This document shows positions 1 through 19,625 of a stretch of 32,000 bases of DNA, piece after piece. Position 1 is the stretch's first letter. The number at the start of each line of letters is the position of its first letter. The notes beneath the pieces are model-generated. The model was given only the letters and a program-made list of their open reading frames with translations, did not search any database and had not been told where the DNA came from. The translations under genes were made by a program, and so were the position numbers. The DNA is from Pseudomonas aeruginosa (lineage in GTDB: Bacteria; Pseudomonadota; Gammaproteobacteria; Pseudomonadales; Pseudomonadaceae): NCBI RefSeq assembly GCF_001457615.1, contig NZ_LN831024.1, forward strand, positions 4,740,001-4,772,000. The letters are read 5' to 3'.

Positions 1-476
1 ACGATGGCGGTAGCTACCAGGGCCTTGTGAAGTCCTGCACCCTGCCCCCGCTGGCCCGCAAGATGGAGCCCTTCCGCGGGGGCGGCATGAACGGCCCGGT
101 CAAGGCCGACCTCGGCCACGACGACGACGGCATCCAGTTCGAGTGGACCGTCGGGGGCCTGGAGCTGACCGTCCTCAAGCAGTACGGCGCAGTCAGCGCC
201 AGCGGCGTGATGCTGCGTTTCGCCGGCGCCTACCAGCAGGACGATACCGGCGCGGTCACGTCCGTCGAAATCGTCGTTCGCGGCCGGCACGAGACCATCG
301 AAATGGGTGACGCCCAGCCCGGCGAAGACACCGAGCACAAGATCACCACCACCTGCAGCTACTACAAGCTCGTCGTCAACGGTGAGGAAGTCATCGAGAT
401 CGACCTGCTGAACTTCGTCGAGAAGGTCAACGGCAAGGACCTGCTCGAGGCACAGCGCAAGGCCATCGGCCTGTAA
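1..476 (+). CDS. FII: Major tail tube protein, P2 gpFII-like (5' end truncated by window edge)
   Basis: The frame is open from position 3 with no upstream stop. It lies immediately upstream of the E/E'/T/U/D genes in P2 order. Confidence 0.85.
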   Translation, partial: DGGSYQGLVKSCTLPPLARKMEPFRGGGMNGPVKADLGHDDDGIQFEWTVGGLELTVLKQYGAVSASGVMLRFAGAYQQDDTGAVTSVEIVVRGRHETIEMGDAQPGEDTEHKITTTCSYYKLVVNGEEVIEIDLLNFVEKVNGKDLLEAQRKAIGL

Positions 477-483
477 TCCCTTC

Positions 484-502
484 CCGCCGGCCCGACCGGC
501 GG
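484..502 (+). terminator. GC stem-loop after the tube gene (possible attenuator or mRNA stabiliser)
   Basis: CCGCCGG-cccga-CCGGCGG forms a 7-bp stem, followed by TTCCTCTCCC. There is no clean U-tract. Confidence 0.35.
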
Positions 503-530
503 TTCCTCTCCCCCTTGGATACCGACGCCC

Positions 531-860
531 ATGAAAACCGAACAGACTCCCGCTGACCTGCAGAACGCTCCCGACAACGTCGTAACCCTCGACCAGCCGA
601 TCAAGCGCGGCGCCCAGTCCATCGAATCGCTCACCCTGCGCAAGCCCTCCTCTGGCGAACTCCGCGGCCTGCACCTGCTCGACCTGCTGCAGTTCGACGT
701 GGCTGCGACCATGAAAATCCTGCCGCGCATCAGCCAACCGACCATCACCGAGCCCGAGGCCGCCGGCATGGACCCGGCTGACCTGCTCGCCTGCGGCCAG
801 GTGATCGCCGGTTTTTTGCTGCAGAAGCGGGCGAAGGCGGCAGCCTCCCTGATCGCGTAG
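531..860 (+). CDS. E: Tail assembly chaperone gpE
   Basis: 109-aa ORF between the tube and tape measure genes. It contains the TTTTTTG slippery heptamer near its 3' end, as in P2 gene E. Confidence 0.85.
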   Translation: MKTEQTPADLQNAPDNVVTLDQPIKRGAQSIESLTLRKPSSGELRGLHLLDLLQFDVAATMKILPRISQPTITEPEAAGMDPADLLACGQVIAGFLLQKRAKAAASLIA

Positions 861-988
861 AAAACGCCATGGCCGACCTGGCCGTGACGTTTCACTGGGC
901 GCCGGACCATATGGACCGGCTCTCGCTCACCGAACTGATGGAATGGCGCGAACGCGCCCGGGTACGGAGTTCCGCCGATGGCGAATGA
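531..988 (+). CDS. E': Tail assembly chaperone E+E' (-1 programmed frameshift product)
   Basis: After a -1 slip at 812-818 the frame stays open to TGA at 986-988. It encodes ...MADLAVTFHWAPDHMDRLSLTELMEWRERARVRSSADGE and overlaps the tape measure ATG at 978. Confidence 0.75.
812..818 (+). promoter_or_regulatory. -1 ribosomal frameshift slippery site TTTTTTG
   Basis: G TTT TTT G read in the gpE frame. This matches the slippery motif described for P2 E/E'. Confidence 0.75.
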
Positions 989-3691
989 CCTGCAGCTGCG
1001 CGTGCTGCTCAGCGCGATCGACAGAGCCACCGCTCCCCTGCGTCGCATCATGCAAGGCAGCGATGCGACGGCCCGGGCGCTCAAGGCAACTCGCGAGCGC
1101 CTGAAGCAGCTCAACGCTCAGCAGAGCGACGTACGCGCGTTCCGTACCCAGCGCGGCGCTCTGGAGCAGGTCAGCACCGCGCTGGCCGCGCAACAGGCCC
1201 GGGTGAAAGCGCTGGCCCAGCAGATGGCCACCGCCGGCAACCCCACCCGTGCGCTCACCCGCGACTACAACCGGGCCATCCGTGAAGCTGGTTTCCTCAA
1301 GCAGCAACACCTGCAGCAGAGCCAAGCCCTGCAGCAACTGCGCACGCGCCTCAGCAACGCCGGCATCAGCACCCGCAACCTCGGCCAGCATGAGCGCGAC
1401 CTGCGCGCGCAGATCCAGGCGGCCAACGGCGCCATCAACAGCCAGGCGCAGCGCTTGCGCAACCTCAGCCAGCAGCAGGAACGCCTGACCCACGCCCGAA
1501 ACACCTACAGCCGCGGCATCCAGAGCGCCGCCGCGCTGGCCGGCACCGGCATGGCGGCGCGCGCGACGGGCATGTACACCGGCGACAAGCTGCGGCAGAT
1601 GCTCGGCGTGGGCTACGAGTTCGACGCAACGATGTCGGCGACCCAGGCGGTGACCCGCATCGAGCGCAAGGACGATCCGCAGATGCAGGCGCTGCGGCAA
1701 CAGGCCCGCACCCTGCCGCTGTCCAGCAAATTCACCGACAAGGAAGTCGCCCAGGGCCAGTATTTCCTGGGCCGCACCGGCTACAACGCGAAGCAGATCC
1801 TCGGCGCCATGCCCGGCATGCTCAACCTGGCCGCCGCCGGCGACATGGACCTCGGCGACACCGCTGACATCGCCTCGAACATCCAGACGGCGATGGGTAT
1901 TCCGGCCGAGAAGATGGACCAGGTGGCCGACGTACTGACTGCGGCGTTCACCCGGAACAACGTCGACATCCGCATGCTCGGCGACTCGCTGAAGTACTCC
2001 GCCGGCGTCGGTCGCGAGTACGGCCAGAGCCTGGAGACGGTCACCACCGCCACGGCCCTGCTCGGCAACGCCGGCGTCCAGGGCAGCATGGCCGGCACCT
2101 CGATGCGCTCTGTGCTGACCCGCCTGGGCACGTCCAAGGCGGTAGCCAAGCTGGGCGTCCAGACCAAGGACGCCAACGGCAACATGCGCGATATGCTGGA
2201 CATCCTGAAGGACATCAACAAGAAGACCGCCGGCATGGGCAACGTGCAGCGCGGCGCGATCTTCAAGGACATCGCTGGGCAGTACGCGGTGACAAGCTTC
2301 GGCACCCTGATGCGCGCCGTCGAGGGCGGCCAGTTCCAGACCATGCGCGAAAGCCTGAACAACTCCGAGGGCGAGGCCGCGAGGGTCGCCGCTACCCAGC
2401 TGGACAACCTCAAGGGCGACATGACCATGCTGCATGCGGCCCTGGAAAACATTTCGGTCGAGCTGTTCGACAAGAACAGCCCCTGGCTGCGCGAGCTCGC
2501 CGCCGACCTCAGTCACCTGCTGCACAACGTCGGCGAGTTCCTGAAGGCCAACCCGCAGGTCAGCAAGGGCATCGTCATCACCGTCGCCGCGTTCTCGGCG
2601 CTGATGGCCACCGTCGGCAGCCTGGCCATCACCCTCGCCGGCATCCTCGGCCCGATGATCGCAGTCCGCTTCATGCTCGGCACCATCGGCATTCGCCTGC
2701 CCGGTCTGATCGGCCTGCTGAAACTGCTGTTCGCACCGATCCGCATGCTGGCCGGCCTGTTGATCGGCCCGCTGGTGACCGCCCTGCGCGTCGTGAGCAT
2801 CGCGCTGTGGGGCCTGGCCGCCAACCCGGTGGTCCTGGCAATTGCCGCCGTCGTGGCGGTGCTGGCCGCCGCCGCGTACCTGATCTATCGCAACTGGGAC
2901 GCCGTCAAGGCGTACCTGCTCGGGATGTGGGAAGAGATCCAGGCGGGCCTGAACGGCGGGATCGGCGGGATCATCCGCATCCTCCTCGACTTCAACCCAC
3001 TCGGCCTGATGTACCGCGCCTTCGCCGGCGTCCTGGGCTACCTGGGCATCGACCTGCCGGCGCGCTTCAGCGACTTCGGCAACATGATCGTCCAGGGCCT
3101 GGTGAACGGCCTGCTCGCCGGCTTAGGGCAGATCAAGCGCGCCGTCCAGCGCGTCGGCGGTGCCGCGATCGACTGGTTCAAGGACAAGCTCGGCATCCAT
3201 TCACCGTCGCGGGTATTCGCCGACCTGGGCGGGTTCACCATGGCCGGCCTGACCCAGGGCCTCGGCGCCGGCCAGGCCGGCCCGCTGGGCGTGATTGCAC
3301 GTCTCGGCCAAGGCCTGGTCAGCGCGGGCCGTCAGGCTGTCGCCGGCCTCGACGGGGAGTTTGCCCGAGGCCCCCGCCCTGCGATCACGCCGCCGACGTT
3401 CGACCAGCCGCTGCTGGCCATGCTGGGCGCCCTGGGCAAGAGCGCCGGCGCCATCGGCGCCCTGGTGCTCGGCGCCAGCGCCCCAGCGCAGGCCATCACC
3501 ATCGACAACCGTCCCCGGTCAGTTCGGCGCCAGCAGCGATCAGCGTCGGCGGCGACACCTACTACATCACCATCCAGGCCGGCGCGGGCAGCGACACCGC
3601 AGACCTGAAACGCACGCTCAGCCAACTGCTGGACGAGCGCGAACGCAACAAGGCGGCGCGCCTGCGCGCCCGCCTGCAGGACCGGGAGTAA
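978..3691 (+). CDS. T: Tail tape measure protein gpT-like; reading frame broken at about 3513-3517
   Basis: The 876-aa ORF (978..3608) has a coiled-coil N-terminus and hydrophobic central segments. The expected C-terminus (ISVGGDTYYITIQAGAGSDTADLKRTLSQLLDERERNKAARLRARLQDRE) sits in the -1 frame, ends at 3691, and is followed 5 nt later by the gpU start. Confidence 0.8.
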
Positions 3692-3696: not shown

Positions 3697-4137
3697 ATGA
3701 TGCTGTCCCTCGGGATGTTCGTCTTCAGCCTGCACACGCTGGCCTACCAAGAGTTCCAGCGACAGACCGAGTGGCGACACGCCAGCAGCAGCCGCATCGG
3801 TGCCCAGCCGGCGCGCCAGTTCGTCGGCCGCGGCGACGACGCGATCACCCTGCCTGGCGTGCTGCTGCCGGAGCTGGCCGGCAGCGCGTTGAGCCTGGAC
3901 GTGCTGCGGCAGATGGCTGACACCGGGTCGGCCTGGCCCATGGTCGAGGGCACCGGACGCATCTACGGCCTGTGGGTGATCGAGCGCGTCACCGAGACGC
4001 GGACACTCTTCTTCGCCGACGGCACCCCGCGGCGGATCGAGTTCTCCCTCGAGCTCAAGCGCATCGACGACGGCCGCACCGATCTGCTCGGCTCGGTCCT
4101 CGGTACCGCCGGCAACCTGCTGAGACGCATCCTGTGA
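3697..4137 (+). CDS. U: Tail protein gpU-like
   Basis: ATG at 3697 lies behind GGGAG. The 146-aa product begins MMLSLGMFVFSLHTLAYQEF, and the gene sits between T and D. Confidence 0.85.
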   Translation: MMLSLGMFVFSLHTLAYQEFQRQTEWRHASSSRIGAQPARQFVGRGDDAITLPGVLLPELAGSALSLDVLRQMADTGSAWPMVEGTGRIYGLWVIERVTETRTLFFADGTPRRIEFSLELKRIDDGRTDLLGSVLGTAGNLLRRIL

Positions 4138-5405
4138 TCGATGCCGCCCTCGCCCGCGTAACGGGCTACCTGACCAGCGCCGTCGACCAGTTGCAGCGCG
4201 ACGCCGGCTACCCGGTGCCGGTGTTCCGGCTCACGGTCGACGGCAACGACATCGCCCAGCTCATCAGCCCTCGGCTGATCGCCCTGGATCTGACCGACAA
4301 TCGCGGCCTCGAGGCCGATCAGTTGAGCGTGACACTCAGCGATCATGACGGGCTGCTCGCGATCCCCCCGCGCGGCGCCGTGCTGCACCTCTGGCTGGGC
4401 TGGAGTGACAGCGGACTGGTCGACAAGGGCACCTACACCGTCGACGAAACCGAGCACAGCGGCGCGCCGGACGTGCTCAGCATCCGCGCCCGCTCAGCGG
4501 ACCTGCGCAAGGGCCTGAAGGTCAAGCGCGAACGCAGTTGGAGCAGCCCGAAGACGCTGGGCGACGTGCTCACCGACATCGCCCTCGGCAACAACCTGAA
4601 GCCGGTGCTCGCGCCGGCGCTGGCGGGCCTGCCGATCCTGCAGCTGGACCAGGCCAACGAGTCCGACGCCAACCTGCTGACACGCCTGGGCGAGGACTTC
4701 GATGCGGTGGCCACCGTGAAAGCCGGCTGCCTGCTCTGCCTGCCGGCCGGCGGCGGCAAGACTGCCAGCGGCCTGGCGCTGCCGCACATCAACCTCACCC
4801 GCCAGGATGGCGACCAGCACCGCTACCTGCAGGCCGACCGCGACAGCTACGACGGCGTGCGCGCGTACTTCTACGACGTGAACAGCGCAAAGAAGCAGGA
4901 GGCCATCGCCGGTGCCAAAGGCGACAACCTCAAGGACCTGCGCCACACCTACAGCGACCGCCAGAGCGCCCTGCGCGCCGCCCGCGCCGAGTGGAACCGC
5001 CTACAGCGTGGCAGCGCCACGCTCAGCTACGTGCTCGCCAAGGGCCGGCCGGACCTGATCCCGGAGCTGACCTACACCCTGCAGGGCGTGAAGACTTCGA
5101 TCGATGCGATCATCTGGTACGGCGGCAATGTGCAGCACAGCCTCAGCGCCGACGGCGGCTACATCACCAGCCTAGAGATGGAAAGCAAGCTGCCCGAGGA
5201 CCTGGTCAGCGACCTGGCCGACGACACCGGCGGCGACTACACCGGCATCATCGCCTACTACCGCGACGAGAAGAGCGGGACGGAGAAGACCATCACCGCG
5301 GGAGACCAGAGCAAGCCGCGCCGTCTGCGCTACCTGTACAGCACCAAGGCCAGTGCGAAGCGGGCTGTGGATCGAGAGTGGAAACGGCTGCTGGCATCCC
5401 GCTAA
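4134..5405 (+). CDS. D: Tail/late protein gpD-like
   Basis: GTG at 4134 overlaps the gpU stop (GTGA). About 423 aa and last gene of the tail cluster. Confidence 0.85.
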   Translation: MIDAALARVTGYLTSAVDQLQRDAGYPVPVFRLTVDGNDIAQLISPRLIALDLTDNRGLEADQLSVTLSDHDGLLAIPPRGAVLHLWLGWSDSGLVDKGTYTVDETEHSGAPDVLSIRARSADLRKGLKVKRERSWSSPKTLGDVLTDIALGNNLKPVLAPALAGLPILQLDQANESDANLLTRLGEDFDAVATVKAGCLLCLPAGGGKTASGLALPHINLTRQDGDQHRYLQADRDSYDGVRAYFYDVNSAKKQEAIAGAKGDNLKDLRHTYSDRQSALRAARAEWNRLQRGSATLSYVLAKGRPDLIPELTYTLQGVKTSIDAIIWYGGNVQHSLSADGGYITSLEMESKLPEDLVSDLADDTGGDYTGIIAYYRDEKSGTEKTITAGDQSKPRRLRYLYSTKASAKRAVDREWKRLLASR

Positions 5406-5437
5406 CCGCTTGTCTAACTGGTACCGTGTTAGCGGTT
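5404..5437. terminator. Inverted repeat between convergent gpD and the cargo gene (putative bidirectional terminator)
   Basis: AACCGCT (5404-5410) pairs with AGCGGTT (5431-5437), with inner AAC/GTT and GGTACC pairing, followed by TTAATA. It also marks the GC-to-AT compositional boundary. Confidence 0.4.
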
Positions 5438-5486
5438 TAATAGGATATGTACGAAACCAAAGTCCCCATCTAATTCAAATAGAACA

Positions 5487-6176
5487 CTAAGAGCCACTTG
5501 GCTTTTCATCCAGAGCCATACGGTAACGTAGGATTTGCTCATCCAACTTACCAATCTGCCTCCGAAGATCTAAATTCATATCTTTCTCATTTGAAAGATC
5601 TGTATTAAGGCTACTAATTTGCCGCTCTAAAGTCCTGACAAGAATTGCGCTATCCGGTGGATACTTGAAATCTTCCTTTACTCTTTCAAGTTCAGCCAAA
5701 GTAGTGGCCCAACTATCCTTAACCTCTCGCTCTCTAGCCGTCGCCGCTCTCGCTATTTCTATCTGGTTTTTGAGTTGATTCTCAAGGTCGTCAGCCTTAT
5801 GAATATATTTAACCCTTAGCTCCATAGCTTCTTCTTCAGAGATGGGCCTTTTCCCTTCTGCTGCAAGTCTTATCTCTTGAATATCCCTCTTACTTTCAAG
5901 TGAAAATTTCAGAGCCCACCTAGCAGGAACTGGATAAATAAATATATAGAAAAGAGCGGTAGCAAGAGGACCAAAGAAGAAAAAGATTAGAGCAACGTAC
6001 CAAGGATTCCATAGACTCTGCTCTATATAATTAAACTTAGCACCAGGCTCCATGTTGGAAAAAATCACAACAAAAAACTTATAATTCCATAAAATCCACG
6101 AGACACAAAAAGCGCCGGATAGTGGGCTCTCAATCCTATCCTTAAAATTACTTTTAATGGACTCCAAAATATCCAT
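5487..6176 (-). CDS. Orphan membrane-anchored coiled-coil protein (2 predicted TM helices plus about 140-aa coiled coil); AT-rich foreign cargo
   Basis: 229-aa ORF whose ATG lies 13 nt after the upstream stop, behind GGGGAGGGGG. Hydrophobic segments are GAFCVSWILWNYKFFVVIF and WYVALIFFFFGPLATALFYIFIYPV. The C-terminal half is charged and heptad-like. No family recognised. Confidence 0.8.
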   Translation of the reverse strand: MDILESIKSNFKDRIESPLSGAFCVSWILWNYKFFVVIFSNMEPGAKFNYIEQSLWNPWYVALIFFFFGPLATALFYIFIYPVPARWALKFSLESKRDIQEIRLAAEGKRPISEEEAMELRVKYIHKADDLENQLKNQIEIARAATAREREVKDSWATTLAELERVKEDFKYPPDSAILVRTLERQISSLNTDLSNEKDMNLDLRRQIGKLDEQILRYRMALDEKPSGS

Positions 6177-6189
6177 GCCCCCTCCCCGT

Positions 6190-6540
6190 TTATGCGCCAG
6201 CCGCGCAGGCTAGGCGCTTCCGCTCATAATCCATCTGGTGCCCCTTCAGTTCAGGCAGCGGGTCGTCCATATCGGCCTGTACCACCAGATCGGACAACAC
6301 CCATCCCAATGCCTCATAGGCCTTGAAGCAGATTTCGTTGGCGCTGCTGCGGATACCAGGGCGGTACCGGTCCAAATCGCCGAACACCTCGGTTACTTGG
6401 TCAACACTCGAAGCCTGCAACGCGTCCAGCATCCTCTGGTGCAGGTTGTCCATCAGTTCGACCTGGGCGGCCGAATCCGCCACCGCAGCACATGAAACCA
6501 TCAGTCCGACCGACGCGGCCGTTCCCTTAAGCCAGTTCAT
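6190..6540 (-). CDS. Small exported protein, possibly a lipoprotein
   Basis: 116 aa with an N-terminal signal-like MNWLKGTAASVGLMVSCAAVA. LMVSC is lipobox-like, and two further Cys are present. SD GAGAGGGA lies upstream. Confidence 0.7.
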   Translation of the reverse strand: MNWLKGTAASVGLMVSCAAVADSAAQVELMDNLHQRMLDALQASSVDQVTEVFGDLDRYRPGIRSSANEICFKAYEALGWVLSDLVVQADMDDPLPELKGHQMDYERKRLACAAGA

Positions 6541-6560
6541 ACGTCCCTCTCTTCACAGTG

Positions 6561-6586
6561 GGGCCTTCGGCTACCGCCGAAGACCC
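6561..6586 (-). promoter_or_regulatory. Strong RNA hairpin between the micro-ORF and the exported-protein gene
   Basis: On the minus-strand transcript, GGGUCUUCGGC-GGUA-GCCGAAGGCCC gives 11 bp with one G-U. On the plus strand the same position is a C-A mismatch. No U-tract follows. Confidence 0.5.
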
Positions 6587-6592
6587 GTTCAA

Positions 6593-6709
6593 TCAACGAT
6601 CCCGGTAAGCGCATGCCAACCGCAGCAAGTCCAACTGGTCCTGCTCGCTCATCTGACTCAGGCAGATCAGAAGAGCGGTGAGCACGACAGGATCGATGGG
6701 CTTATCCAT
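6593..6709 (-). CDS. Micro-ORF, 38 aa (MDKPIDPVVLTALLICLSQMSEQDQLDLLRLACAYRDR)
   Basis: ATG is preceded by AAGGAG at good spacing. It is the first ORF downstream of the repressor gene on the same strand and is below the ORF-track size cutoff. Confidence 0.4.
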   Translation of the reverse strand: MDKPIDPVVLTALLICLSQMSEQDQLDLLRLACAYRDR

Positions 6710-6858
6710 AGGTCTACTCCTTAGACAGGCCACCCGGCGACATCATGCCACCGTGCCAGCAGCCTGGGAGTACCCCATTGTTCACATAGGTTGACGCCCA
6801 AAAAGCAGACGCAGCGAAGCCTCCCCCTAACGAATTTCCTACTCGACAGCGATACGTC

Positions 6859-7257
6859 TCATTTCTTCGTAGGACGTGTTGCAGCGGCTTCGGAGAGCGC
6901 GCGCCCCATCCGCACATAGGCAGCTCGATCTGCTTCGTCCATAGATGTCATGTATCCCAGTACATCCAACTCGCTCTGGCTGAGAGCATCGAGTTCGGCA
7001 GGAAGTCGCCTGCCAGTTATCACGTAAAGAACATCAACCCCAAACGCATCGGCCGCAGCGAGATACAAAGCATCAGGGCTACGCTCCCCTTTTTCGTAGT
7101 TGTATTGGCTGTTCTTCGACACATTCAGCTGGGCAGCAAAGTCCGTCTGGTTCATGCCCAGCCGTTCCCGCTCCTCCTTCAGCCGTTCCCCGATTCCCAC
7201 ATACGTCTCCAAATGCGCTTGACTTTCCATCATTCGTAGGAAAAACTGCGCATACAT
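6859..7257 (-). CDS. cI-type immunity repressor, XRE-family HTH
   Basis: HTH motif IGERLKEERERLGMNQTDFAAQLNVSKNSQYNYEKGERSP. It is divergent from a Ner/Cro-like gene. Alternative ATG starts lie at 7233 and 7230. Confidence 0.8.
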   Translation of the reverse strand: MYAQFFLRMMESQAHLETYVGIGERLKEERERLGMNQTDFAAQLNVSKNSQYNYEKGERSPDALYLAAADAFGVDVLYVITGRRLPAELDALSQSELDVLGYMTSMDEADRAAYVRMGRALSEAAATRPTKK

Positions 7258-7276
7258 TCACACGAAGTCACACGAA
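7258..7276. promoter_or_regulatory. Tandem direct repeat TCACACGAA x2 (10-bp register) in the immunity switch region; putative operator
   Basis: TCACACGAAG TCACACGAAA lies between the divergent repressor and Ner-like genes. Confidence 0.45.
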
Positions 7277-7284
7277 ACGAGACT

Positions 7285-7497
7285 ATGCACAACGCCTACC
7301 CCACCGAGCAAGCGTGCGAGAAAGCGCGCCAGCATCTGGCGAGCCAAGGGCTGTCGGCCAGGCAATGGGCGGTGAAGAACAACCTCACCCCCTCGACCGT
7401 GTACGCCGTCCTCAACCGACAGAAGAAGTGCCTGCGCGGCGAAGCCCATCGCGCGGCTGTCCTTCTCGGCATCAAAGACGGCGTGATCGCACAGTAA
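7285..7497 (+). CDS. ner: Ner / BcepMu gp16-like small HTH regulator (Cro analogue)
   Basis: 70 aa with the motif LTPSTVYAVLNRQKKCLRGEAHRAAVLLGIK. It is the first gene of the rightward early operon. Confidence 0.6.
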   Translation: MHNAYPTEQACEKARQHLASQGLSARQWAVKNNLTPSTVYAVLNRQKKCLRGEAHRAAVLLGIKDGVIAQ

Positions 7498-7997
7498 TGG
7501 CCACCGCACTGGGGGGACACCAGAAGATGAAACGCCCGCTCCTAGAAACGCGGCGCCAGGTGGTCAGCGCGATCATCGGCGCCTACCCCGGCGGTCGCGA
7601 ATGCGCCGCTGCCCGCCTGGGCCTCGACCTGAAGAAGTTTGACAACCACGCCTACGAAAACGCCGGCAGCAAGCCGCTCAGCGACGACCAGTTGCTCTTG
7701 CTCGAGCAGGAAACCGGCACCAGCCACTTCCCCGAGTACGTCGCACACCTGTATGGCGGCATGTTCGTGCAGATGCCCGATCCAGCCCAGCTGGACAACC
7801 TCGACCTGTACGCCAGGGGCGTCGCCACCGCCATCAGGCGCGGCGAGGTCGACCGCATCATCGCCGAGGCGCTACGCGACGGAGAGATCGACGAGGCCGA
7901 ACTCGCCGAAATCATCGTCGCCCACCGCCAACACCTGGCCGCACGACATGCCGAAGTCGGCGCAGTGATCACCCTGCACCGGAGGGTCAAGGCGTGA
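7497..7997 (+). CDS. Phage CII-like regulatory protein
   Basis: ATG overlaps the preceding stop (TAATG). The segment ETRRQVVSAIIGAYPGGRECAAARLGLDLKKFDNHAYENAGSKPLSDDQLLLLEQETG resembles CII/CP76-type regulators; assignment is from memory. Confidence 0.55.
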   Translation: MATALGGHQKMKRPLLETRRQVVSAIIGAYPGGRECAAARLGLDLKKFDNHAYENAGSKPLSDDQLLLLEQETGTSHFPEYVAHLYGGMFVQMPDPAQLDNLDLYARGVATAIRRGEVDRIIAEALRDGEIDEAELAEIIVAHRQHLAARHAEVGAVITLHRRVKA

Positions 7998-8944: not shown

Positions 8945-11661
8945 AGGAAATGGACCGCGAACTCAAGGCCGACGTGCTGCGCCGCCTGCAGGATCAGTAC
9001 GGACTGACGCCGATCAAGGGCACAAAGTACATGCGCAAGGGCGAGTGCCCGACGTGCGGCAAAAAGGAGCTCTACACCCTGGTCGACAGCCCCTGGTTCA
9101 TCCGCTGCGGGCGCGGCAAGTGCGGCGACACCTGGCACATCAAGGAAATCTACCCGGAGCTCTTCGACGACTGGAGCAAGCGAGCGCCGGCCACCGACAA
9201 GGAACCCGCCGCCTCGGCCCGGGCGTACCTGGCCCATGCCCGCGGCTTCGACCTGGCGCTGATCGATGGCTGGTACAGCCAGGAAAACTACTGGGACCGC
9301 GACCTTGAGATCGGTAGCGCGACAGTACGCTTCCCGCTGAAGAAAGGCGGCTACTGGGAACGCCTAATCGATCGCCCGAGCCGCTTCGGCAAGAAGAAGG
9401 CCCGCTTCAAGCCGGGCGACAGCCCGCGCGGCGTCTGGTGGTGCCCACCCAGCGTCGACCTGCAGGAGGTGAAGGAGCTGTGGATCGTCGAAGGTATCTT
9501 CGACGCCATCGCACTGCTGCACCACGGCATCGACGCCGTGTCGGCCATGAGCTCCAACGCCTTCCCCGAGCAGTCTTTGCGCGAACTCGCGACAGCCCGT
9601 AGCGGCAAGCTGCCGAAACTGATCTGGGCGCTGGACAACGAACCCGGCGCCCACAGGTACACCCGGCGGTGGGTGACCGAGGCACGTGCCCTGGGCTACG
9701 TCTGCGAAGCGGCCCAACTACCGCAGCGCAACAACCGCAAATTCGACTGGAACGACCTGCACCAGCGCTGGATGTTCATCGATGACGCGGCCGAGCGCGC
9801 CGCGCAGATCGAGAAGGACCTCAAGACCGCGCGCCATGAGGGCGCGCTGCTGATCGCCGAGAGTCCTGCCGAGAAAGCGCTGCTGATGTACGACTGGAAC
9901 AGCCGCGGCGAATTCCACTTTCGGTTCGGCAACAGATTGTTCTGGTTCAAGCTGGACCTCGAGAAGTTCGACCGGGCCATGCGCGCGTTCGAAAACAGCG
10001 ACGACCACGAAGATAAGTTGCTGAACGACAGACAGAAGCGCGACAAGGCGCTGCAGCAGTCCGGCAATGTGGTTGAAATCGCAAACTGCTTCCCCCAGGC
10101 CCTGTACTTCCAGCGCAACGAGGTCACAGACGAGAGCTGGTACTACTTCCGCATCGATCGCCCCGACGACGAGAGCGTGAAGAACACCTTCACCAGCGCC
10201 CAAGTCGCGGCGGCCAGCGAGTTCAAGAAGCGCCTGCTCGGCGTGGCAGCGGGGGCGATCTTCACCGGCAGCGGCGCGCAGCTCGACCAGATCATGAAGC
10301 TGCAACTCACCGGCCTGAAGACGGTGGCCACCATCGATTACCTGGGCTACAGCCGGGAGCATGCCTGCTACGTCCTGGGCGACGTGGCGGTGCGCGGCGG
10401 CGTGATCGAGAAGGCCAACGCCGAAGACTTCTTCGAATTCCAAAAGCTGCGCCTGAAGACCCTGCAGCGTTCGATCAAGCTGCAGATCGCCACCGACGCC
10501 AAGGACTACCGCCCCGAGTGGCTGGACTGGCTGTGGACCTGCTTCGGCGCCAAGGGCCTGGTGGCGCTGGCATTCTGGTTCGGCTCGCTGTTCGCAGAGC
10601 AGATCCGCGCCGAGTTCCAGTCCTTTCCGTTCCTCGAGGCCACCGGCGAGGCCGGTGCCGGCAAGTCCACGCTGATCACCTTCCTATGGAAGCTGCTCGG
10701 CCGGGCGGACGAGGAAGGCCAGGACCCGTCGAAGATGACCAAGGCGGGCCTGCGCCGCTGGCTGACCCAGCTGTCGAACATGCCCATGGTCATGCTCGAG
10801 GCCGACCGCAGCGACAACAGCCGCGCCGGCGGCGCCGCCAAGTCATTCGACTGGGACGAGTTCAAGCCGCTGTTCAACGGCCGCGCGCTGGGCGTGACCG
10901 GCCAGAAGACCGCCGGCAACGAGACCTACGAGCCACCCTTCCGCGGCACCCTGGTGATGAGCCAGAACGCCACGGTGCAGGCCTCCGAAGCGATCATGAC
11001 CCGTATCGTGAAGCTGCACTTCATTCGCCCGGAGATCACCCGCGAGAGCCAGGCCGCGGCCGACAACCTCAACCACCTGGACGTGCTCGAGGTCAGCCAC
11101 TTCCTGCTGATGGCCATCCGCGCGGAGGCCCGCGTGCTGGAGTGCTTCCGCGAGCGGCTGAAGGTTCACAGCGCGACGCTGCGCGGTCTGAAGCAGATTC
11201 GTATCGAGCGGCTGATACTCAACCACGCGCAGATGATGGCCCTGGTCGACGCGCTGCGCCTGGTGGTGCCGCTGTCCGAGCACCAGCTCGCCTGCGCTCA
11301 GCAGACCCTGATGACGATGGCCCTGGAGCGCCAGGACGCCGTCAACGCCGACGCGCCCGAGGTGGCCGAGTTCTGGGAGGTCTACGACTACCTCGAAAAC
11401 CTCAGCGAAGAGCCGGTGCTCAACCACAGCAAGAACCCCGGAACCATCGCCATCAACCTTAATGAGTTCGTGAAGCTGGCCGCCGACCACCGCCAGAAGG
11501 TGGCCGACGCGGCAACCCTGCGCGACCTGCTGAAAGAGTCCCGCCGGCACAAATTCATCGAATACAAGGCCGTCGACAGCGCAGTGCGCGCGGCACACGC
11601 CCGCCAGAACCCTTTCACCAACCGACCCAGCACCGTCAAGTGCTGGATTTTCCAAGCCTAA
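8941..11661 (+). CDS. Bifunctional primase/helicase-type replication protein (zinc finger + TOPRIM + P-loop NTPase)
   Basis: Cys cluster CPTCGKKELYTLVDSPWFIRCGRGKCG, TOPRIM-like LWIVEGIFDAIAL...ALDNEPG, and Walker A GEAGAGKST. About 906 aa. Confidence 0.8.
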   Translation: MKEMDRELKADVLRRLQDQYGLTPIKGTKYMRKGECPTCGKKELYTLVDSPWFIRCGRGKCGDTWHIKEIYPELFDDWSKRAPATDKEPAASARAYLAHARGFDLALIDGWYSQENYWDRDLEIGSATVRFPLKKGGYWERLIDRPSRFGKKKARFKPGDSPRGVWWCPPSVDLQEVKELWIVEGIFDAIALLHHGIDAVSAMSSNAFPEQSLRELATARSGKLPKLIWALDNEPGAHRYTRRWVTEARALGYVCEAAQLPQRNNRKFDWNDLHQRWMFIDDAAERAAQIEKDLKTARHEGALLIAESPAEKALLMYDWNSRGEFHFRFGNRLFWFKLDLEKFDRAMRAFENSDDHEDKLLNDRQKRDKALQQSGNVVEIANCFPQALYFQRNEVTDESWYYFRIDRPDDESVKNTFTSAQVAAASEFKKRLLGVAAGAIFTGSGAQLDQIMKLQLTGLKTVATIDYLGYSREHACYVLGDVAVRGGVIEKANAEDFFEFQKLRLKTLQRSIKLQIATDAKDYRPEWLDWLWTCFGAKGLVALAFWFGSLFAEQIRAEFQSFPFLEATGEAGAGKSTLITFLWKLLGRADEEGQDPSKMTKAGLRRWLTQLSNMPMVMLEADRSDNSRAGGAAKSFDWDEFKPLFNGRALGVTGQKTAGNETYEPPFRGTLVMSQNATVQASEAIMTRIVKLHFIRPEITRESQAAADNLNHLDVLEVSHFLLMAIRAEARVLECFRERLKVHSATLRGLKQIRIERLILNHAQMMALVDALRLVVPLSEHQLACAQQTLMTMALERQDAVNADAPEVAEFWEVYDYLENLSEEPVLNHSKNPGTIAINLNEFVKLAADHRQKVADAATLRDLLKESRRHKFIEYKAVDSAVRAAHARQNPFTNRPSTVKCWIFQA

Positions 11662-11679
11662 CCGGCGCGGCAACGCCGG
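11662..11679 (+). promoter_or_regulatory. Hairpin CCGGCG-CGGCAA-CGCCGG directly after the primase stop
   Basis: 6-bp perfect stem. Its CGGCAA loop is identical to the hairpin at 12284-12313. Confidence 0.5.
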
Positions 11680-11686
11680 AACTGCA

Positions 11687-11711
11687 ACCCCAAAGGAGAG
11701 ACACCATGCAA
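11687..11711 (+). repeat. 25-nt exact repeat ACCCCAAAGGAGAGACACCATGCAA (SD plus start codon), copy 1
   Basis: Identical to 12318-12342. Contains AAGGAG and the ATG of the downstream ORF. Confidence 0.9.
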
Positions 11712-12059
11712 CCCCTCCCCCACGACTATCTGCAGTTGATCCACGACTTCCAGGCCAGGCAGCAGGAGAACGAGGTAGCCGGCATCACAGCGTTGAAACG
11801 CCTGCTCCCGATCGCACAGCGCGACAGCGGCCAGAGCGGCGTGATCGGTCGGTTCCTGCTCGGCCTGTACAACGGCCAAGCCCACCGCTTCGACCTCACC
11901 GAGCTACGCCGCCTCGACCCAGCTCTGTTCGATGCGTGCCTGTCCGTGCTGCGTATGGACTACGCCCCGAAACAGGAAGTGCATGAGTACTTCGAGGACG
12001 GCGACGCGATCTGGCAGGACCTGCGCAAACGCTGGGCCGCAGCATCGCTGCCGGCATAG
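11706..12059 (+). CDS. Hypothetical early protein
   Basis: ATG at 11706 behind AAAGGAGAG. 117 aa. Confidence 0.65.
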   Translation: MQPLPHDYLQLIHDFQARQQENEVAGITALKRLLPIAQRDSGQSGVIGRFLLGLYNGQAHRFDLTELRRLDPALFDACLSVLRMDYAPKQEVHEYFEDGDAIWQDLRKRWAAASLPA

Positions 12060-12070
12060 GGGGACTGACT

Positions 12071-12277
12071 GTGGATGTGATCGACCAGGCCAACGAACGG
12101 GCCGAGAACATGATCCAGGCCGCCCTGGCCCAGCGGACGAACACCCGCCTGGCGCCCAGCGCCCTCTGGTGCGAGGACTGCGGCGAGCAGATACCCGAGG
12201 CCCGCCGCCAGGCCGCCCCAGGCTGCGAGTGCTGCATCAGCTGTCAGGAACTGCGCGAGCACCCCGCGCGGCGCTGA
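12071..12277 (+). CDS. TraR/DksA-family C4 zinc-finger protein
   Basis: CEDCGEQIPEARRQAAPGCECCISC shows the C-x2-C...C-x2-C pattern typical of phage TraR-like proteins. GTG start. Confidence 0.75.
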   Translation: MDVIDQANERAENMIQAALAQRTNTRLAPSALWCEDCGEQIPEARRQAAPGCECCISCQELREHPARR

Positions 12278-12283
12278 AGAAGA

Positions 12284-12313
12284 GGCGCCAGGGAGCGGCA
12301 ACTCCCTGGCGCC
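12284..12313 (+). promoter_or_regulatory. Hairpin GGCGCCAGGGAG-CGGCAA-CTCCCTGGCGCC after the TraR-like gene
   Basis: 12-bp perfect stem. The loop matches 11662-11679, but the stem sequence is different. Confidence 0.55.
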
Positions 12314-12317
12314 GACC

Positions 12318-12342
12318 ACCCCAAAGGAGAGACACCATGCAA
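12318..12342 (+). repeat. 25-nt exact repeat ACCCCAAAGGAGAGACACCATGCAA, copy 2
   Basis: Identical to 11687-11711. Confidence 0.9.
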
Positions 12343-12777
12343 GCGAATCAGCCTCAAGGCGGCAGCGCCAAGGCTAGCACACCACGCTATGACACCATCG
12401 TCATCCGCGGCGCCACCGGCAAAGACGTCCCGAGGGAAGTAGACGGCGGAGAGGTGGTCAGCTGGGCACGCGGCCATGAACTGGCAGCCGGCGACGCCCT
12501 GCTGGAGTTCGTCAACTACGTGGCCGATGGTGATTGCGGCATCACCCCGGAGCTGAGCACCAAGGCGCGTAAGGCGCTGGATCTGATGGAGCGTCGCAGC
12601 AGGTTGGGCTGGGAGGCGGACGAACAGCCAGAAGATTGGCCGGCGTCGGTTAACCGTGCAGCACAAACGGCCCGCGAAGTGTTCAACGGCTCCCACGAAG
12701 ACGCCATCCAGGCGATTGAGTACATGCATGCCCTGCTGCTGCAGGCTGCCCCTGTCGTGCAAGGCGGTGACGTATGA
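12337..12777 (+). CDS. Hypothetical early protein
   Basis: ATG at 12337 behind AAAGGAGAG. 146 aa. Confidence 0.65.
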   Translation: MQANQPQGGSAKASTPRYDTIVIRGATGKDVPREVDGGEVVSWARGHELAAGDALLEFVNYVADGDCGITPELSTKARKALDLMERRSRLGWEADEQPEDWPASVNRAAQTAREVFNGSHEDAIQAIEYMHALLLQAAPVVQGGDV

Positions 12778-12950
12778 AGCCCTGCACCCTTGGCAAGCGC
12801 CACAGCTGGACATTCGTCCGCAACGTCGTCACCAGCCACCTGAGCGGCCGTTTCGGCCGCATCACCAAGCGCGGGTTCTACCGCTGCGAATGCGGCGCCG
12901 AGAAGTACGGCAACGCCGGCGACCTGTCCGGGGGTAGCACCCATGCTTAA
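12774..12950 (+). CDS. Small basic Cys-containing hypothetical protein (58 aa)
   Basis: ATG overlaps the previous stop (ATGA). Translation: MKPCTLGKRHSWTFVRNVVTSHLSGRFGRITKRGFYRCECGAEKYGNAGDLSGGSTHA. Below the ORF-track cutoff. Confidence 0.5.
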   Translation: MKPCTLGKRHSWTFVRNVVTSHLSGRFGRITKRGFYRCECGAEKYGNAGDLSGGSTHA

Positions 12951-13041
12951 GCGCACCCTCTACCACTTCCACTTCTGCTGCGGCCTGGGCGGCGGCGTGG
13001 CGGTGGCGCTGAGCGTTTCACAACCCGCTGAAAGTCGCTGA
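12943..13041 (+). pseudogene. Possible N-terminal remnant of a C5 cytosine methyltransferase (32 codons)
   Basis: MLKRTLYHFHFCCGLGGGVAVALSVSQPAESR. FCCGLGGG resembles SAM-binding motif I (FxGxGG), and the frame stops soon after. Confidence 0.3.
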
Positions 13042-13051
13042 GGTGAACGGC

Positions 13052-13228
13052 ATGCACGAATTACTGAAGATGCTGGACAACCCGCGCAGCTTGCTGAACT
13101 TCTCGCTGGCGATTCTGGCTGTCCTGGCTTTGTTCTTCATGTTGAAGAGCGGCGCGCAAGCTGCTTCGCAGCCGGCCTCCTCCTTCTCCGCTCCCAAGGA
13201 AGCAGACTCAAGGGGGAAACGTCCATGA
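13052..13228 (+). CDS. Small membrane protein
   Basis: SD GAGG lies 8 nt upstream of the ATG. Hydrophobic helix LLNFSLAILAVLALFFML. The ORF track offers an alternative GTG at 13043. Confidence 0.5.
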   Translation: MHELLKMLDNPRSLLNFSLAILAVLALFFMLKSGAQAASQPASSFSAPKEADSRGKRP

Positions 13229-13851
13229 GCGACCTTTTCTACCTGCAGGACAGCCGCAGCAACGTCGGGAGCCGAGCAACGTTCTGGCGCGCCGGCGGCG
13301 GCTACACCACGAACCTCGACGACGCCGAGACGTTCGCCCGCGAACGCGCCGTAAAGCAGTACGAAAACCGCGACAGCGATCTGCCCTGGCCCGTGGACTA
13401 TGTCCGCGCCCGGGCAGAGGTCGGGGTCGACTGCCAGTACCTCACCAAGTCAGAAGCCGAGGCCTACCGCAACGAGGACGGCCGCATGTATGTGGCGTAC
13501 GCACGCGAGTGGGACGGAAACGACCTGGTATGGCGCGGCGCCCAAGGCCCAACCGCCAACCTGGACGACGCCATCCACCCGGGGGCGGCTGATGCCGCTG
13601 TGTTCCTGGCCCAGGGCTTCGAGCTGTGGCCATGCGGCTACATCGCGGAGCACTCCCGCCTGGTAGTCCGCGCCATGCTGCTCGACCACAAGCAGGCGCT
13701 GCGCTCGGTCGGCCTCAAGCTGCCCAAGCTCCAGCGCCCGCGCTATCGCAGCTACAGCAACCTGCTCAACTGCGAAGGCTGCGGCCGTTTTCTCAACGAG
13801 CGCCAGCGCTTCGACGACTGCCCCAACTGTGGGACAAGGAATGCGCCATGA
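13225..13851 (+). CDS. Hypothetical protein with an internally duplicated N-terminal motif and a C-terminal zinc ribbon
   Basis: FWRAGGGYTTNLDDAETF is echoed by VWRGAQGPTANLDDAIHP. The C-terminus carries CEGCGRF...CPNCG. Confidence 0.65.
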   Translation: MSDLFYLQDSRSNVGSRATFWRAGGGYTTNLDDAETFARERAVKQYENRDSDLPWPVDYVRARAEVGVDCQYLTKSEAEAYRNEDGRMYVAYAREWDGNDLVWRGAQGPTANLDDAIHPGAADAAVFLAQGFELWPCGYIAEHSRLVVRAMLLDHKQALRSVGLKLPKLQRPRYRSYSNLLNCEGCGRFLNERQRFDDCPNCGTRNAP

Positions 13852-14705
13852 CCGCCTATCGCCCACTACTTCGTTATCACGGCGGCAAGTGGAAACTAGC
13901 CCCGTGGATCATCAGCCACATGGCCGAGCACAAGACATACGTCGAGCCATTCGGTGGCGGTGGATCCGTCCTGATTCGCAAGCCCCGCGCCTACGCCGAG
14001 GTCTACAACGACTTGGACGGGGACGTGGTGAACCTGTTCCGTGTCGCGCGCGACCGCGGCGAGGAGCTGCGCCAGGCCCTGGCACTTACTCCGTTCGCTC
14101 GAGGCGAGTTCGACATCAGCTACGACGAAACAGCAGACACGCTGGAGCGCGCACGCCGGATGATCGTGCGCTCATTTCAAGGGTTCGGTAGCGCAGCGGC
14201 GAGCGGCGAACGCACGGGGTTTCGCTCATCGTCCTCCCGTTCGGGAACATCCCCGGCGATGGACTGGCGCAACTACCCGGACGCACTGTCCGCGATCATT
14301 GACCGCCTCCAGGGCGTAGTGATCGAGAATCGCGACGCTATGGAAGTGATGGCACACCACGACCGGCCGACCACTCTGCACTATGTCGATCCGCCCTACG
14401 TGCATTCAACTCGCAGCCCCAAGGTCCGGCACAACGACACCGGGAAGAGCTATCGCTACGAGCTCAGCGACGAGCAGCACCGGGACCTTGCGGTCGCACT
14501 GCATCGGTTGGATGGCATGGTCATTGTCTCTGGCTATCCATGCCCCCTATATGACGATCTGTTCCAGGACTGGCACTGCATCGAGCGCGCAGCGCATGCC
14601 GACGGTGCACGCCAGCGCGTCGAGTGTTTATGGCTCAACCCTAGCGCTTACCAGGGACTGGCTCAGTTCGACATTTTCAAGGAGGGCAACGCATGCGCAT
14701 GCTGA
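13848..14705 (+). CDS. dam: N6-adenine DNA methyltransferase, Dam/D12 class
   Basis: YHGGKWKLAPWI, FGGGGS (motif I) and DPPY (motif IV). The ATG overlaps the previous stop. Confidence 0.85.
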   Translation: MTAYRPLLRYHGGKWKLAPWIISHMAEHKTYVEPFGGGGSVLIRKPRAYAEVYNDLDGDVVNLFRVARDRGEELRQALALTPFARGEFDISYDETADTLERARRMIVRSFQGFGSAAASGERTGFRSSSSRSGTSPAMDWRNYPDALSAIIDRLQGVVIENRDAMEVMAHHDRPTTLHYVDPPYVHSTRSPKVRHNDTGKSYRYELSDEQHRDLAVALHRLDGMVIVSGYPCPLYDDLFQDWHCIERAAHADGARQRVECLWLNPSAYQGLAQFDIFKEGNACAC

Positions 14706-14935
14706 TACTCCAAAGTGGCCGCCGCTGCGGCCGCTCGAAAAGCCTGCAGCCATTGCTTCAGTACGCCCTGGCCAACGGTTGGAGGGTTGGACTGACCAAC
14801 GGCGGGCATCTGCGCTTCACCAAGGCAGAGCGGCCAGTTATCCACACCAGCAGCACGCCGAGCGATTGGCGCGCAGTCCGCAACGCGGTGGCAATGCTGG
14901 CCAGGGCCGATCGCAAGGAGGTGATCCTTGTCTGA
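14693..14935 (+). CDS. Hypothetical small protein (weak HicA/YcfA-like resemblance)
   Basis: Strong SD AAGGAGG. 80 aa. The segment GWRVGLTNGGHLRFTKAERPVIHTSSTPSDWRAVRNAVAML recalls the HicA fold pattern, but this is not verified. Confidence 0.5.
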   Translation: MRMLILQSGRRCGRSKSLQPLLQYALANGWRVGLTNGGHLRFTKAERPVIHTSSTPSDWRAVRNAVAMLARADRKEVILV

Positions 14936-15131
14936 TCAGGCCAACCGCCAGCACATGCTGGCATGTGAGGCCCGGTACTGGCTCCGGCGTGGCATCACCA
15001 CGCCGGAGAAAGTCGCCGAGCTGAGCGAAACCCTCAAGCGGCGGGGGGAAAGCGCCGTCGAGCAGTTGATAGCGGAAATGCGCCGTCAGTGGCTGGCACG
15101 GACAGAGTGGATAGGTGGTGAAGATGGCTGA
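14928..15131 (+). CDS. Hypothetical small protein (TTG start)
   Basis: AAGGAGG lies 8 nt upstream of TTG 14928. 67 aa. Confidence 0.45.
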   Translation: MSDQANRQHMLACEARYWLRRGITTPEKVAELSETLKRRGESAVEQLIAEMRRQWLARTEWIGGEDG

Positions 15132-15327
15132 ACTGGACAGATTCATGCGGGAAGCCGAGGTACTGGAAGCCACCAGCCTGGCGCGCTCGACACTCTGGCG
15201 GGAGGTGAAGGCCAAGCGCTTCCCCAGTCCGGTACAGATCACACCTGGGCGAGTAGGCTGGAGACAATCCGATATCAACCGCTGGCTGGAAAACCCGATG
15301 GGATGGACGCCAACAAGGGCCGCGTGA
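15124..15327 (+). CDS. alpA: AlpA-family phage regulatory protein / excisionase-like HTH
   Basis: LEATSLARSTLWREVKAKRFPSPVQITPGRVGWRQSDINRWL matches the AlpA pattern. The gene is adjacent to the integrase. Confidence 0.75.
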   Translation: MAELDRFMREAEVLEATSLARSTLWREVKAKRFPSPVQITPGRVGWRQSDINRWLENPMGWTPTRAA

Positions 15328-15333
15328 GCGGCC

Positions 15334-16536: not shown

Positions 16537-16587
16537 GGGGCTGTCCTTAATTAGGGGCCCTTTCTGGGGGCCGTTTGCACGGAGCAA

Positions 16588-16623
16588 GGTGGTTCTTCCT
16601 GGGACAACCTAGGACGAACCACC
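16588..16623. promoter_or_regulatory. Long imperfect palindrome upstream of the integrase gene
   Basis: GGTGGTTC-T-TCCTGGG-ACAA-CCTAGGA-C-GAACCACC: 8 + 7 bp arms, with one G-T on the plus strand. Confidence 0.4.
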
Positions 16624-16655
16624 TACCCAGAGGCCCCGGGATAGAAGGCCTCGAC

Positions 16656-16667
16656 GCACAATTGTGC
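16656..16667. promoter_or_regulatory. Perfect 12-bp palindrome GCACAATTGTGC in the att-proximal arm
   Basis: Read directly from the sequence. It lies between the int gene and the att core. Confidence 0.35.
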
Positions 16668-16702
16668 ATGAACTCAGACAGCCGTGGACAGTGCGCCTCA
16701 AT

Positions 16703-16748: not shown

Positions 16749-16750
16749 GA
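16725..16750 (+). repeat. attL core of the Pf prophage (26-bp direct repeat, T-loop to 3' end of tRNA-Gly)
   Basis: GTTCGATTCCCTTCGCCCGCTCCAGA is identical to 26479-26504. Confidence 0.9.
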
Positions 16751-19615: not shown

Positions 19616-19625
19616 CGGCTCCCCC

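Follow-up and report, generated by a model that had tools for sequence, protein, structure and literature searches.

P2-like phages are known to carry diversity hotspots, one of which lies between tail-protein and CI genes (iLund4u preprint, bioRxiv 10.1101/2024.10.15.618418), and cI-adjacent hotspots occur in P2-related Vibrio phages (Rousset et al., 2022, PMC9122126). We compare with these a gene for a protein of 229 amino acids (aa) on the minus strand of a 32,000-nucleotide stretch of Pseudomonas aeruginosa DNA (contig NZ_LN831024.1, positions 4,740,001 to 4,772,000, hereafter the window), which holds the tail-to-early-region part of a phiCTX-like (Citexvirus, Peduoviridae, P2-type) prophage. 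The 229-aa gene is cargo of this recognised type of P2-like phage diversity hotspot. It encodes a member of a large protein family which, together with its architecture, is without description in the resources that we searched; membrane-anchored, single-gene cargo of P2-type hotspots is, as a kind, known. We propose, with somewhat less than even confidence, that the protein is a single-protein sensor and membrane effector of anti-phage defence that aborts infection.

The 229-aa gene as cargo of an exchanged cassette

The slot between the tail gene gpD and the cI-side genes was compared in six relatives, phiCTX, Dobby, Sirocco, D14A, BR319a and OQ658368 (the nucleotide matches of Dobby, phiCTX, Sirocco and vB_PaeM-D14A to the window are of 82-92% identity). 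In blastn alignments to phiCTX, Dobby and Sirocco, homology is lost at ~5382-5391, in the last codons of gpD, and is back at ~6191-6197, at the stop codon of a 116-aa gene. The ~800-bp block between these two breaks is therefore an exactly exchanged cassette, and the 229-aa gene is the sole cargo of the variable slot. The cargo differs between relatives: phiCTX carries orf28 and orf29, Dobby and Sirocco carry a LuxR/GerE regulator together with a hypothetical gene on the opposite strand, BR319a has two hypothetical genes, D14A (locus L032, vB_PaeM-D14A 467-3434) has a C5-cytosine methylase, a 299-aa protein and a protein annotated with a ParB domain, and OQ658368 (locus L034, 5098-7529) has a 464-aa protein that is a full-length homologue of PD-Lambda-5_A (4e-90). 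The N-terminal ~150 residues of the ParB-annotated protein of D14A also match PD-Lambda-5_A models (6e-20). Recognised defence genes are present in the slots of OQ658368 and D14A, and the other cargoes are unannotated. In front of the PD-Lambda-5_A homologue of OQ658368 lies ~1 kb of unannotated DNA, with room for a possible partner gene. The borders of the cassette were searched for flanking repeats and recombination sites, and nothing convincing turned up. The exact swap of a low-GC (guanine plus cytosine) cassette bears out the foreign acquisition that a preliminary description of the locus had proposed, and the cassette-swapping hotspot that it had proposed to look for at the gpD/cI junction is seen in the varying cargo of the six relatives, which includes a full-length PD-Lambda-5_A.

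The 229-aa open reading frame (ORF) is a real, selected gene, fixed in one Citexvirus lineage. A second allele with 97% protein identity lies in the same slot of another prophage (locus L006). Of the 21 nucleotide differences between the two alleles, 14 fall in third codon positions, and together they make 14 synonymous and seven conservative non-synonymous codon changes. Because the ratio of non-synonymous to synonymous polymorphism (pN/pS) of the two alleles is 0.13, the ORF is taken as a genuine gene under purifying selection. The identical protein occurs in public P. aeruginosa assemblies, under the name 'hypothetical protein [Pseudomonas aeruginosa]' (CKI05092.1 and others). It sits between the 116-aa gene and gpD at all eight of the places listed (23 contigs read), and none of the copies found has a broken reading frame. 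The GC content of the ORF is 0.40 (0.37 at third codon positions, GC3), compared to 0.68 for gpD (GC3 0.86), 0.60 for the 116-aa gene and 0.62 for the whole window. With 40% GC in a host of 66% GC, the gene is a likely target of xenogeneic silencers, and this composition, like the lack of a predicted promoter of its own, could be expected of a silent or decaying hitch-hiker, that is, an AT-rich insert without a present function in the host. We regard such a hitch-hiker as very improbable, as the pN/pS of 0.13, the unbroken frame in all copies, a strong ribosome-binding site and an N-terminal module conserved across thousands of clusters all speak against it.

The gene lies on the same strand as the cI-type repressor and downstream of it. 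The TAA of the 116-aa gene (6192-6190) is followed by 13 nucleotides, ACGGGGAGGGGGC, and then by the ATG of the 229-aa gene at 6176, with the Shine-Dalgarno sequence GGGGAGGGGG at 6187-6178. A consensus scan of the gaps from the repressor to the ORF yielded no terminator-like sites; one minus-strand terminator-like match lies inside the 116-aa gene and does not exceed the level of shuffled sequence. The consensus scan of the minus strand predicted no separate promoter for the ORF, and no intrinsic terminator was found 3' of the gene, where the hairpin (z -0.55) is no better than in shuffled sequence. From gene order, the 13-nt spacing and gaps without a predicted terminator we infer that in the lysogen the 229-aa gene would be the last to be transcribed in a cI - 38-aa - 116-aa operon, and its translation might be coupled to that of the 116-aa gene. 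At this level the preliminary description agrees with our reading of the sequence: it had quoted the minus-strand ORF at 5487-6176 exactly and placed the gpD stop correctly at 5405, and the ATG 13 nt past the preceding stop, the Shine-Dalgarno sequence, the AT-rich composition and the co-oriented position downstream of a repressor (HTH_3/HTH_31, 6859-7257, minus strand) are all as it had reported.

A family with a conserved membrane module and exchangeable heads

The protein had previously been called an orphan that could be placed in no family, and this does not hold. A word-indexed protein search with the 229-aa protein gave three relatives only. An exhaustive search with a profile of the first ~145 residues recovered 3096 representatives of 50%-identity clusters at E<=1e-3 (1593 at E<=1e-10 and 322 at E<=1e-30), most of them 250-370 aa long with the profile match at the N-terminus. 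Five PHROG families (phrog_22645, phrog_13369, phrog_4780, phrog_35327 and phrog_24478), all of 'unknown function', match residues ~2-175 at E-values between 1.2e-8 and 3e-3, and thus the N-terminal two-thirds, which take in the module and some of the stalk. The 229-aa protein itself has the profile match, the invariant residues and the SW..WNYKF and YPxPA motifs of the family, which spans many phyla as well as phages, with hosts that include Pseudomonas, Shewanella, Sulfurimonas, Leptospira, Ramlibacter, Sedimenticolaceae, Sulfuricellaceae, candidate-phyla bacteria and viral contigs. In tblastn searches of 50,697 isolated phage genomes the 229-aa protein and family member P0027 were without a match and member P0009 gave one weak match, in a Klebsiella Uetakevirus.

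Annotated families and structures gave little to compare. The Pfam scan of the 229-aa protein returned no match at E<=1 beyond coiled-coil noise, and the matches to PUMA_CC, FlaC and JetC in the Pfam, NCBIfam and PADLOC scans were likewise taken as such noise. No Pfam family covers the N-terminal module in any of 110 aligned members. A sequence search of the PDB with the 229-aa protein found nothing, nor did the N-terminal family profile even at E<=10, and the model of the whole protein has no fold neighbours in the PDB or BFVD. Text searches of the literature for a defence protein with two transmembrane helices and a coiled coil or winged helix returned nothing relevant. The architecture is hence unmatched in Pfam, NCBIfam, PADLOC, PDB sequences, PDB/BFVD folds and literature text, which is an absence of matches and not a proof.

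Conservation and tail statistics were taken from an alignment of the 110 family members. Residues P18, L19, N31, P70 and P82 are invariant in all of them, and R14, S17, F23, S26, W27, W30, S40, K47, Y81, P84, A85 and P111 are nearly so. The AlphaFold2 model of the 229-aa protein is all-helical, with a mean predicted local distance difference test (pLDDT) score of 86.4, and the helices of the module span residues 2-15, 18-30, 32-39 (after the break at N31), 44-55, 59-80 and 82-106. The two hydrophobic segments that had been noted before are there, at residues 21-40 and 59-84, and they differ in strength: the maximal 19-residue Kyte-Doolittle value is borderline for segment 1 (1.54; family median 1.43) and strong for segment 2 (2.27; family median 1.96, and at least 1.6 in 85% of members). 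Segment 2 is thus clearly predicted to be a transmembrane helix. The 20 residues past it are strongly positive (family mean of K+R 6.2 versus D+E 1.7), which is the reason for placing the C-terminal part in the cytoplasm. The simplest reading of these data is a two-pass topology with both termini in the cytoplasm and a conserved, predicted periplasmic loop of ~18 residues; the alternative would be one pass plus a re-entrant or interfacial helix. The conservation of polar and proline residues inside hydrophobic helices suggests a working membrane device rather than a passive anchor.

This topology bears on a reading in which the protein excludes superinfecting phages at the envelope, either by blocking genome entry or by switching off a receptor such as type IV pili, so that the cell survives. 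Known examples of exclusion are T4 Imm, P22 SieA and HK97 gp15 and, from P. aeruginosa prophages, Tip, Aki and PfsE, and the fact that P. aeruginosa prophages commonly encode membrane proteins of this kind counts for it, as do a predicted inner-membrane location, a plausible place in the lysogeny operon, a hotspot on the cI side and the lack of a conserved partner gene. However, the variable part of the family, which presumably gives specificity, is predicted to be cytoplasmic while the ~18-residue predicted periplasmic loop is conserved, Pfam has no match to superinfection-exclusion families such as Imm and SieB, and hosts as far apart as Sulfurimonas, Leptospira and candidate-phyla bacteria argue against a host-specific receptor as target. 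We consider exclusion at the envelope to be quite unlikely. Within the defence reading that we favour, it is for the same reason, a short and conserved periplasmic loop and a variable, presumably specificity-giving part in the cytoplasm, that abortive infection is preferred over an entry block.

Beyond the module the protein is a rod, which in the AlphaFold2 model consists of a long helix (residues 114-169), a break at PPDS and two further helices (177-195 and 202-223). The preliminary description had predicted ~140 residues of coiled coil. The last ~47 residues (177-223) do form a clean heptad zipper, with a/d positions 85-100% hydrophobic, but the predicted length was somewhat overstated, the heptad signal of residues 114-169 being weaker (69%). 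Past residue ~145 the family is hypervariable, with 53 tail clusters among the 110 members, and the tail of the 229-aa protein is a singleton that clusters with no other member. In the family as a whole, the membrane module is followed by a long helix, predicted to be cytoplasmic, and then by a C-terminal head that varies. In the biggest tail cluster (38 of 110 members, P0005, P0011 and P0027 among them) this head is a MarR-like winged helix. The evidence is a tail profile that matches MarR, SlyA and PadR structures weakly but consistently (best E 2e-3) and the AlphaFold2 model of P0027 (pLDDT 87), whose C-terminal domain superposes on MarR-family winged helices at ~2 Å over ~75 residues with a Foldseek probability of 1.0. 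The P0027 model has helices 1-6 and the long stalk in common with that of the 229-aa protein. A MarR-like head on a coiled-coil stalk tethered to the membrane is unusual, and text searches found no description of one. The 229-aa protein has only the leucine-zipper-like coiled coil and no DNA-binding head, and the remaining family tails are small unrelated domains. One member, P0069 (488 aa), has a C-terminal domain that matches the C-terminal ~240 residues of PDC-S49 (E 1.7e-18). Of the PADLOC matches in the 110 members this is the one informative case; the others are confined to single members or were read as winged-helix (CARF3 models, eight members) or coiled-coil (LmuB, JetC) noise. Those to CARF probably fall on the helix-turn-helix (HTH) part of the models, because the LuxR-type HTH of Dobby matches related CARF3 models at its HTH region and because the biggest tail cluster is a winged helix.

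The heads also raise a non-defence, accessory role, in which the protein, tethered to the membrane, would serve as a scaffold or regulator, recruit DNA or proteins and affect prophage maintenance, induction or host physiology; winged-helix heads would, for example, tether DNA, and the zipper would sequester a host or phage factor. A MarR-like winged helix ends about a third of the close representatives, the same slot in Dobby and Sirocco holds a LuxR-type regulator, and many homologue loci have no defence or mobile-element neighbours, all of which fit such a role. It is at odds, on the other hand, with the recurrence of the family gene in validated defence hotspots and islands, with the very fast turnover of the C-terminus next to a conserved membrane module, with the consistently foreign composition and with the absence of a DNA-binding head from the 229-aa protein. 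Taking both sides, we judge an accessory role of this type, including these examples, to be unlikely, and continue to prefer anti-phage defence.

Neighbourhoods of homologues and the proposed mechanism

The surroundings of homologues connect the family with mobile elements and defence genes. In two P2-like prophages the homologue adjoins the portal gene, past the gpA replication gene, which is the classical old/tin hotspot, and its companions at gpA-portal loci are HEPN_AbiU2, or an AAA_15/AAA_21 ATPase, or other uncharacterised cargo. In another island the companions of the family gene are an integrase, a methylase and a PARIS-like AAA_15-AAA_21-DUF4435 protein. The P. moraviensis copy comes after TIR (CAP12-PCTIR) and nSTAND1 genes, and the P. 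lurida copy has a tail cluster, with gpD at its end, on one side and an S-pyocin gene on the other. In each of the 19 loci measured, the GC content of the family gene is 8-24 points under that of the rest of the locus. Among 104 neighbours and ten immediate upstream genes, no partner proved to be conserved. Two Pseudomonas genomes have a mini-island that consists of an integrase (intact or fragmentary) and the family gene alone, and both copies (L039 2859-5040 and L009 7074-8939) are at the same chromosomal site, upstream of ECH_1, acyltransferase and CorA genes. In P. kilonensis and P. tehranensis (L017 6763-7848 and L018 6772-7857) a same-strand 361-aa protein with an HSDR_N domain, of the restriction-enzyme nuclease type, precedes the family gene and the two may form a local two-gene variant; this neighbour is common to just those two related Pseudomonas loci.

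Two hydrophobic helices followed by a charged coiled-coil tail recall class II holins and the holin of mycobacteriophage D29, and the P. lurida homologue beside a tail cluster and an S-pyocin gene would likewise suit holin- or toxin-like membrane damage to the benefit of the carrier element itself, for example in lysis timing, addiction or kin killing, rather than in defence. The 229-aa gene, however, is on the repressor side, between gpD and the repressor genes and outside the lysis cassette; Pfam and PHROG scans of the protein match no holin families, homologues stand alone in integrase mini-islands without lysis genes, and a conserved antitoxin-like partner is lacking. A holin- or toxin-like role is improbable on these grounds.

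We return to anti-phage defence and put forward a hypothetical mechanism. The protein would be anchored in the inner membrane, its C-terminal rod reaching into the cytoplasm, and would form oligomers via the zipper. The variable cytoplasmic end would recognise a phage-derived cue after genome entry, upon which the conserved hydrophobic module (N31, P70, P82) would rearrange or assemble, the membrane would be compromised and the infection aborted. A variant of this idea, which we hold to be less likely, is that the protein would block an early step at the inner membrane. Extended to the whole family, the proposal is that its members are widespread, unrecognised single-protein anti-phage systems in which the two-helix module kills or blocks and the exchanged head on its stalk, be it a winged helix, a small alpha/beta domain or a bare zipper, senses; this extension we hold as possible but doubtful. 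If it is true, membrane-tethered DNA- or protein-sensing heads would trigger membrane failure directly, without a second messenger or partner.

The defence reading draws on guilt by association, namely on hotspots, islands and defence-gene neighbours, which makes the protein a credible, unproven candidate, and several observations weigh against it. Many homologue loci have ordinary metabolic neighbours, and the association with defence is therefore anecdotal and not statistical. In PADLOC-DB v2.0.0 the single match of the 229-aa protein is the coiled-coil-type one to JetC (E 7.7e-4), which is not meaningful, and no known pore-former or holin fold or family was detected in Pfam, among PDB/BFVD folds or by the PDB profile search. 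The topology is uncertain, segment 1 being borderline as a transmembrane helix. The membrane-tethered winged helix of many relatives could equally mean DNA tethering or regulation. Finally, a tract of 40% GC in P. aeruginosa is a typical target of the silencers MvaT and MvaU, and expression in the lysogen is therefore not assured. On balance the anti-phage interpretation, which the preliminary description had already offered, is plausible and somewhat strengthened, though unproven.

The consequences depend on which reading applies. If the family is defensive, its thousands of clusters, spread over many phyla, would make it a very common system of a single gene, and one that is missed by current defence-annotation tools; the gpD/cI slot of phiCTX-type prophages would become a site to mine for P. 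aeruginosa defences, with relevance for phage therapy; and the fixed membrane part with its swappable head would be a convenient model for sensing coupled to membrane damage. If it is not, the family still merits a name, as a large group of mobile membrane proteins without annotation.

Prophage setting and comparison with known systems

The features of the locus are collected in Table 1. The 116-aa gene that borders the slot is kept in every Citexvirus examined and matches phrog_26546 at 2.7e-75; its Pfam match to CDC37_C (1e-4) was judged probably spurious. The N-terminus of its product, MNWLKGTAASVGLMVSCAAVA/DS, resembles a cleavable signal peptide, so the product would be a small secreted protein, apparently a member of the lysogeny operon. 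The repressor is 132 aa as the longest ORF and 113-118 aa in annotated relatives (Dobby, Sirocco and some assemblies), and its true start is probably an internal Met. An Rfam scan of 4800-7800 found no family, and tRNA genes are absent from the whole window according to ARAGORN. Past the primase and TraR/DksA genes, at ~11,900-13,200, is a second patchy region, which is probably another variable slot; just ~18% of 11,600-17,200 can be aligned to relatives, whose content there is a C5-methylase and a PAPS reductase. At ~17,150-25,300 there is a Pf-type filamentous prophage that encodes Zot and CoaA as well as a replication initiator and an integrase and shares 96% identity with PfAC03, PfAC05 and relatives. 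It lies a few kb past the early region of the phiCTX-like prophage, and the two prophages are close neighbours.

Table 1. Features of the gpD-to-repressor region, in window coordinates
Feature	Position	Strand	Evidence or remark
gpD tail gene	4134..5405	+	423 aa as called in public assemblies; left hotspot border
Low-GC cassette, GC 0.41, exchanged as a unit	5392..6190		blastn; alignment of gpD 3' ends
229-aa gene, hotspot cargo, member of the unnamed family	5487..6176	-	ORF; pN/pS 0.13; profile search
Helical rod, residues 114-223	5508..5837	-	AlphaFold2 model; heptad scan; tail clustering
N-terminal membrane module, residues 1-112	5841..6176	-	Alignments; AlphaFold2 model; profile search
Hydrophobic segment 2, residues 59-84	5925..6002	-	Kyte-Doolittle 2.27; ends in YPVPA motif
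Hydrophobic segment 1, residues 21-40	6057..6116	-	Kyte-Doolittle 1.54; break at N31 in model
13-nt spacer with Shine-Dalgarno-like GGGGAGGGGG (6178-6187)	6177..6189	-	Sequence read
116-aa gene, phiCTX orf30-like, phrog_26546	6190..6540	-	Conserved; right hotspot border
38-aa gene, phiCTX orf31-like	6593..6709	-	Conserved in relatives
cI-type HTH repressor	6859..7257	-	Pfam HTH_31 4.5e-9, HTH_3 6.4e-8
cox-like / BcepMu gp16-family HTH gene	7285..7497	+	Divergent; marks the lysis-lysogeny switch

Close counterparts are the cargoes of the P2-like hotspots (old/tin, Z/fun and tail-protein/CI), which like the 229-aa gene occupy an exactly swapped slot between core genes, and relatives of the 229-aa protein sit in the gpA-portal hotspot alongside recognised defence genes. 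Unlike the tail-protein/CI hotspot, the phiCTX-type slot is between gpD and the 116-aa gene and not directly beside cI. In the searched text of the two hotspot studies (PMC9122126 and 10.1101/2024.10.15.618418) family members are absent among the systems tested. The five PHROGs have the N-terminal module and part of the stalk in common with the 229-aa protein, which by these N-terminal matches belongs to that group of phage protein families; the PHROGs are unannotated and are separate from one another because their C-termini differ, and the wider family is much larger and mostly bacterial or prophage-borne. PDC-S49, a PADLOC candidate, has its C-terminal domain in common with P0069 while its N-terminus is unrelated to the membrane module, and head domains have thus been exchanged with a candidate defence protein. 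Membership of the 229-aa protein in PDC-S49 was rejected, as it has no match and just the distant member P0069 has the domain. Tab, the tail assembly blocker of a P. aeruginosa prophage, was also considered and dropped, its paper having no mention of transmembrane segments, a coiled coil or P2-like phages.

T4 Imm, P22 SieA and SieB, HK97 gp15 and lambda RexB are prophage-borne inner-membrane proteins linked to immunity regions, as the 229-aa protein is predicted to be, but Pfam and PADLOC gave no homology to them, and it is a predicted cytoplasmic region that varies in the 229-aa family. RexB requires RexA. The loci of RexAB and SieB differ from ours in that the 229-aa gene, which in Pfam and PADLOC matches neither RexA, RexB nor SieB, is single cargo and not part of a two-gene sensor and channel; the 116-aa gene is not a dedicated partner because it is conserved in relatives with other cargo. 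The SLATT-type and other effectors with two transmembrane helices (2TM) of CBASS, Pycsar and Thoeris, and Cam1 of type III CRISPR, are separated from the 229-aa protein by the lack of any sequence or fold match (Pfam SLATT/DUF4231 are unmatched at E<=1), by the absence from the window and the homologue loci of the cyclase or other signal-producing neighbour of SLATT-type systems, and by a cytoplasmic part that is a coiled coil or winged helix in the 229-aa family and a nucleotide-binding domain in the 2TM effectors. Nevertheless, these effectors and the 229-aa family likewise join a short helical membrane module to a signal-receiving cytoplasmic domain, and the outcome proposed for the 229-aa protein is the same as theirs, membrane damage and abortive infection.

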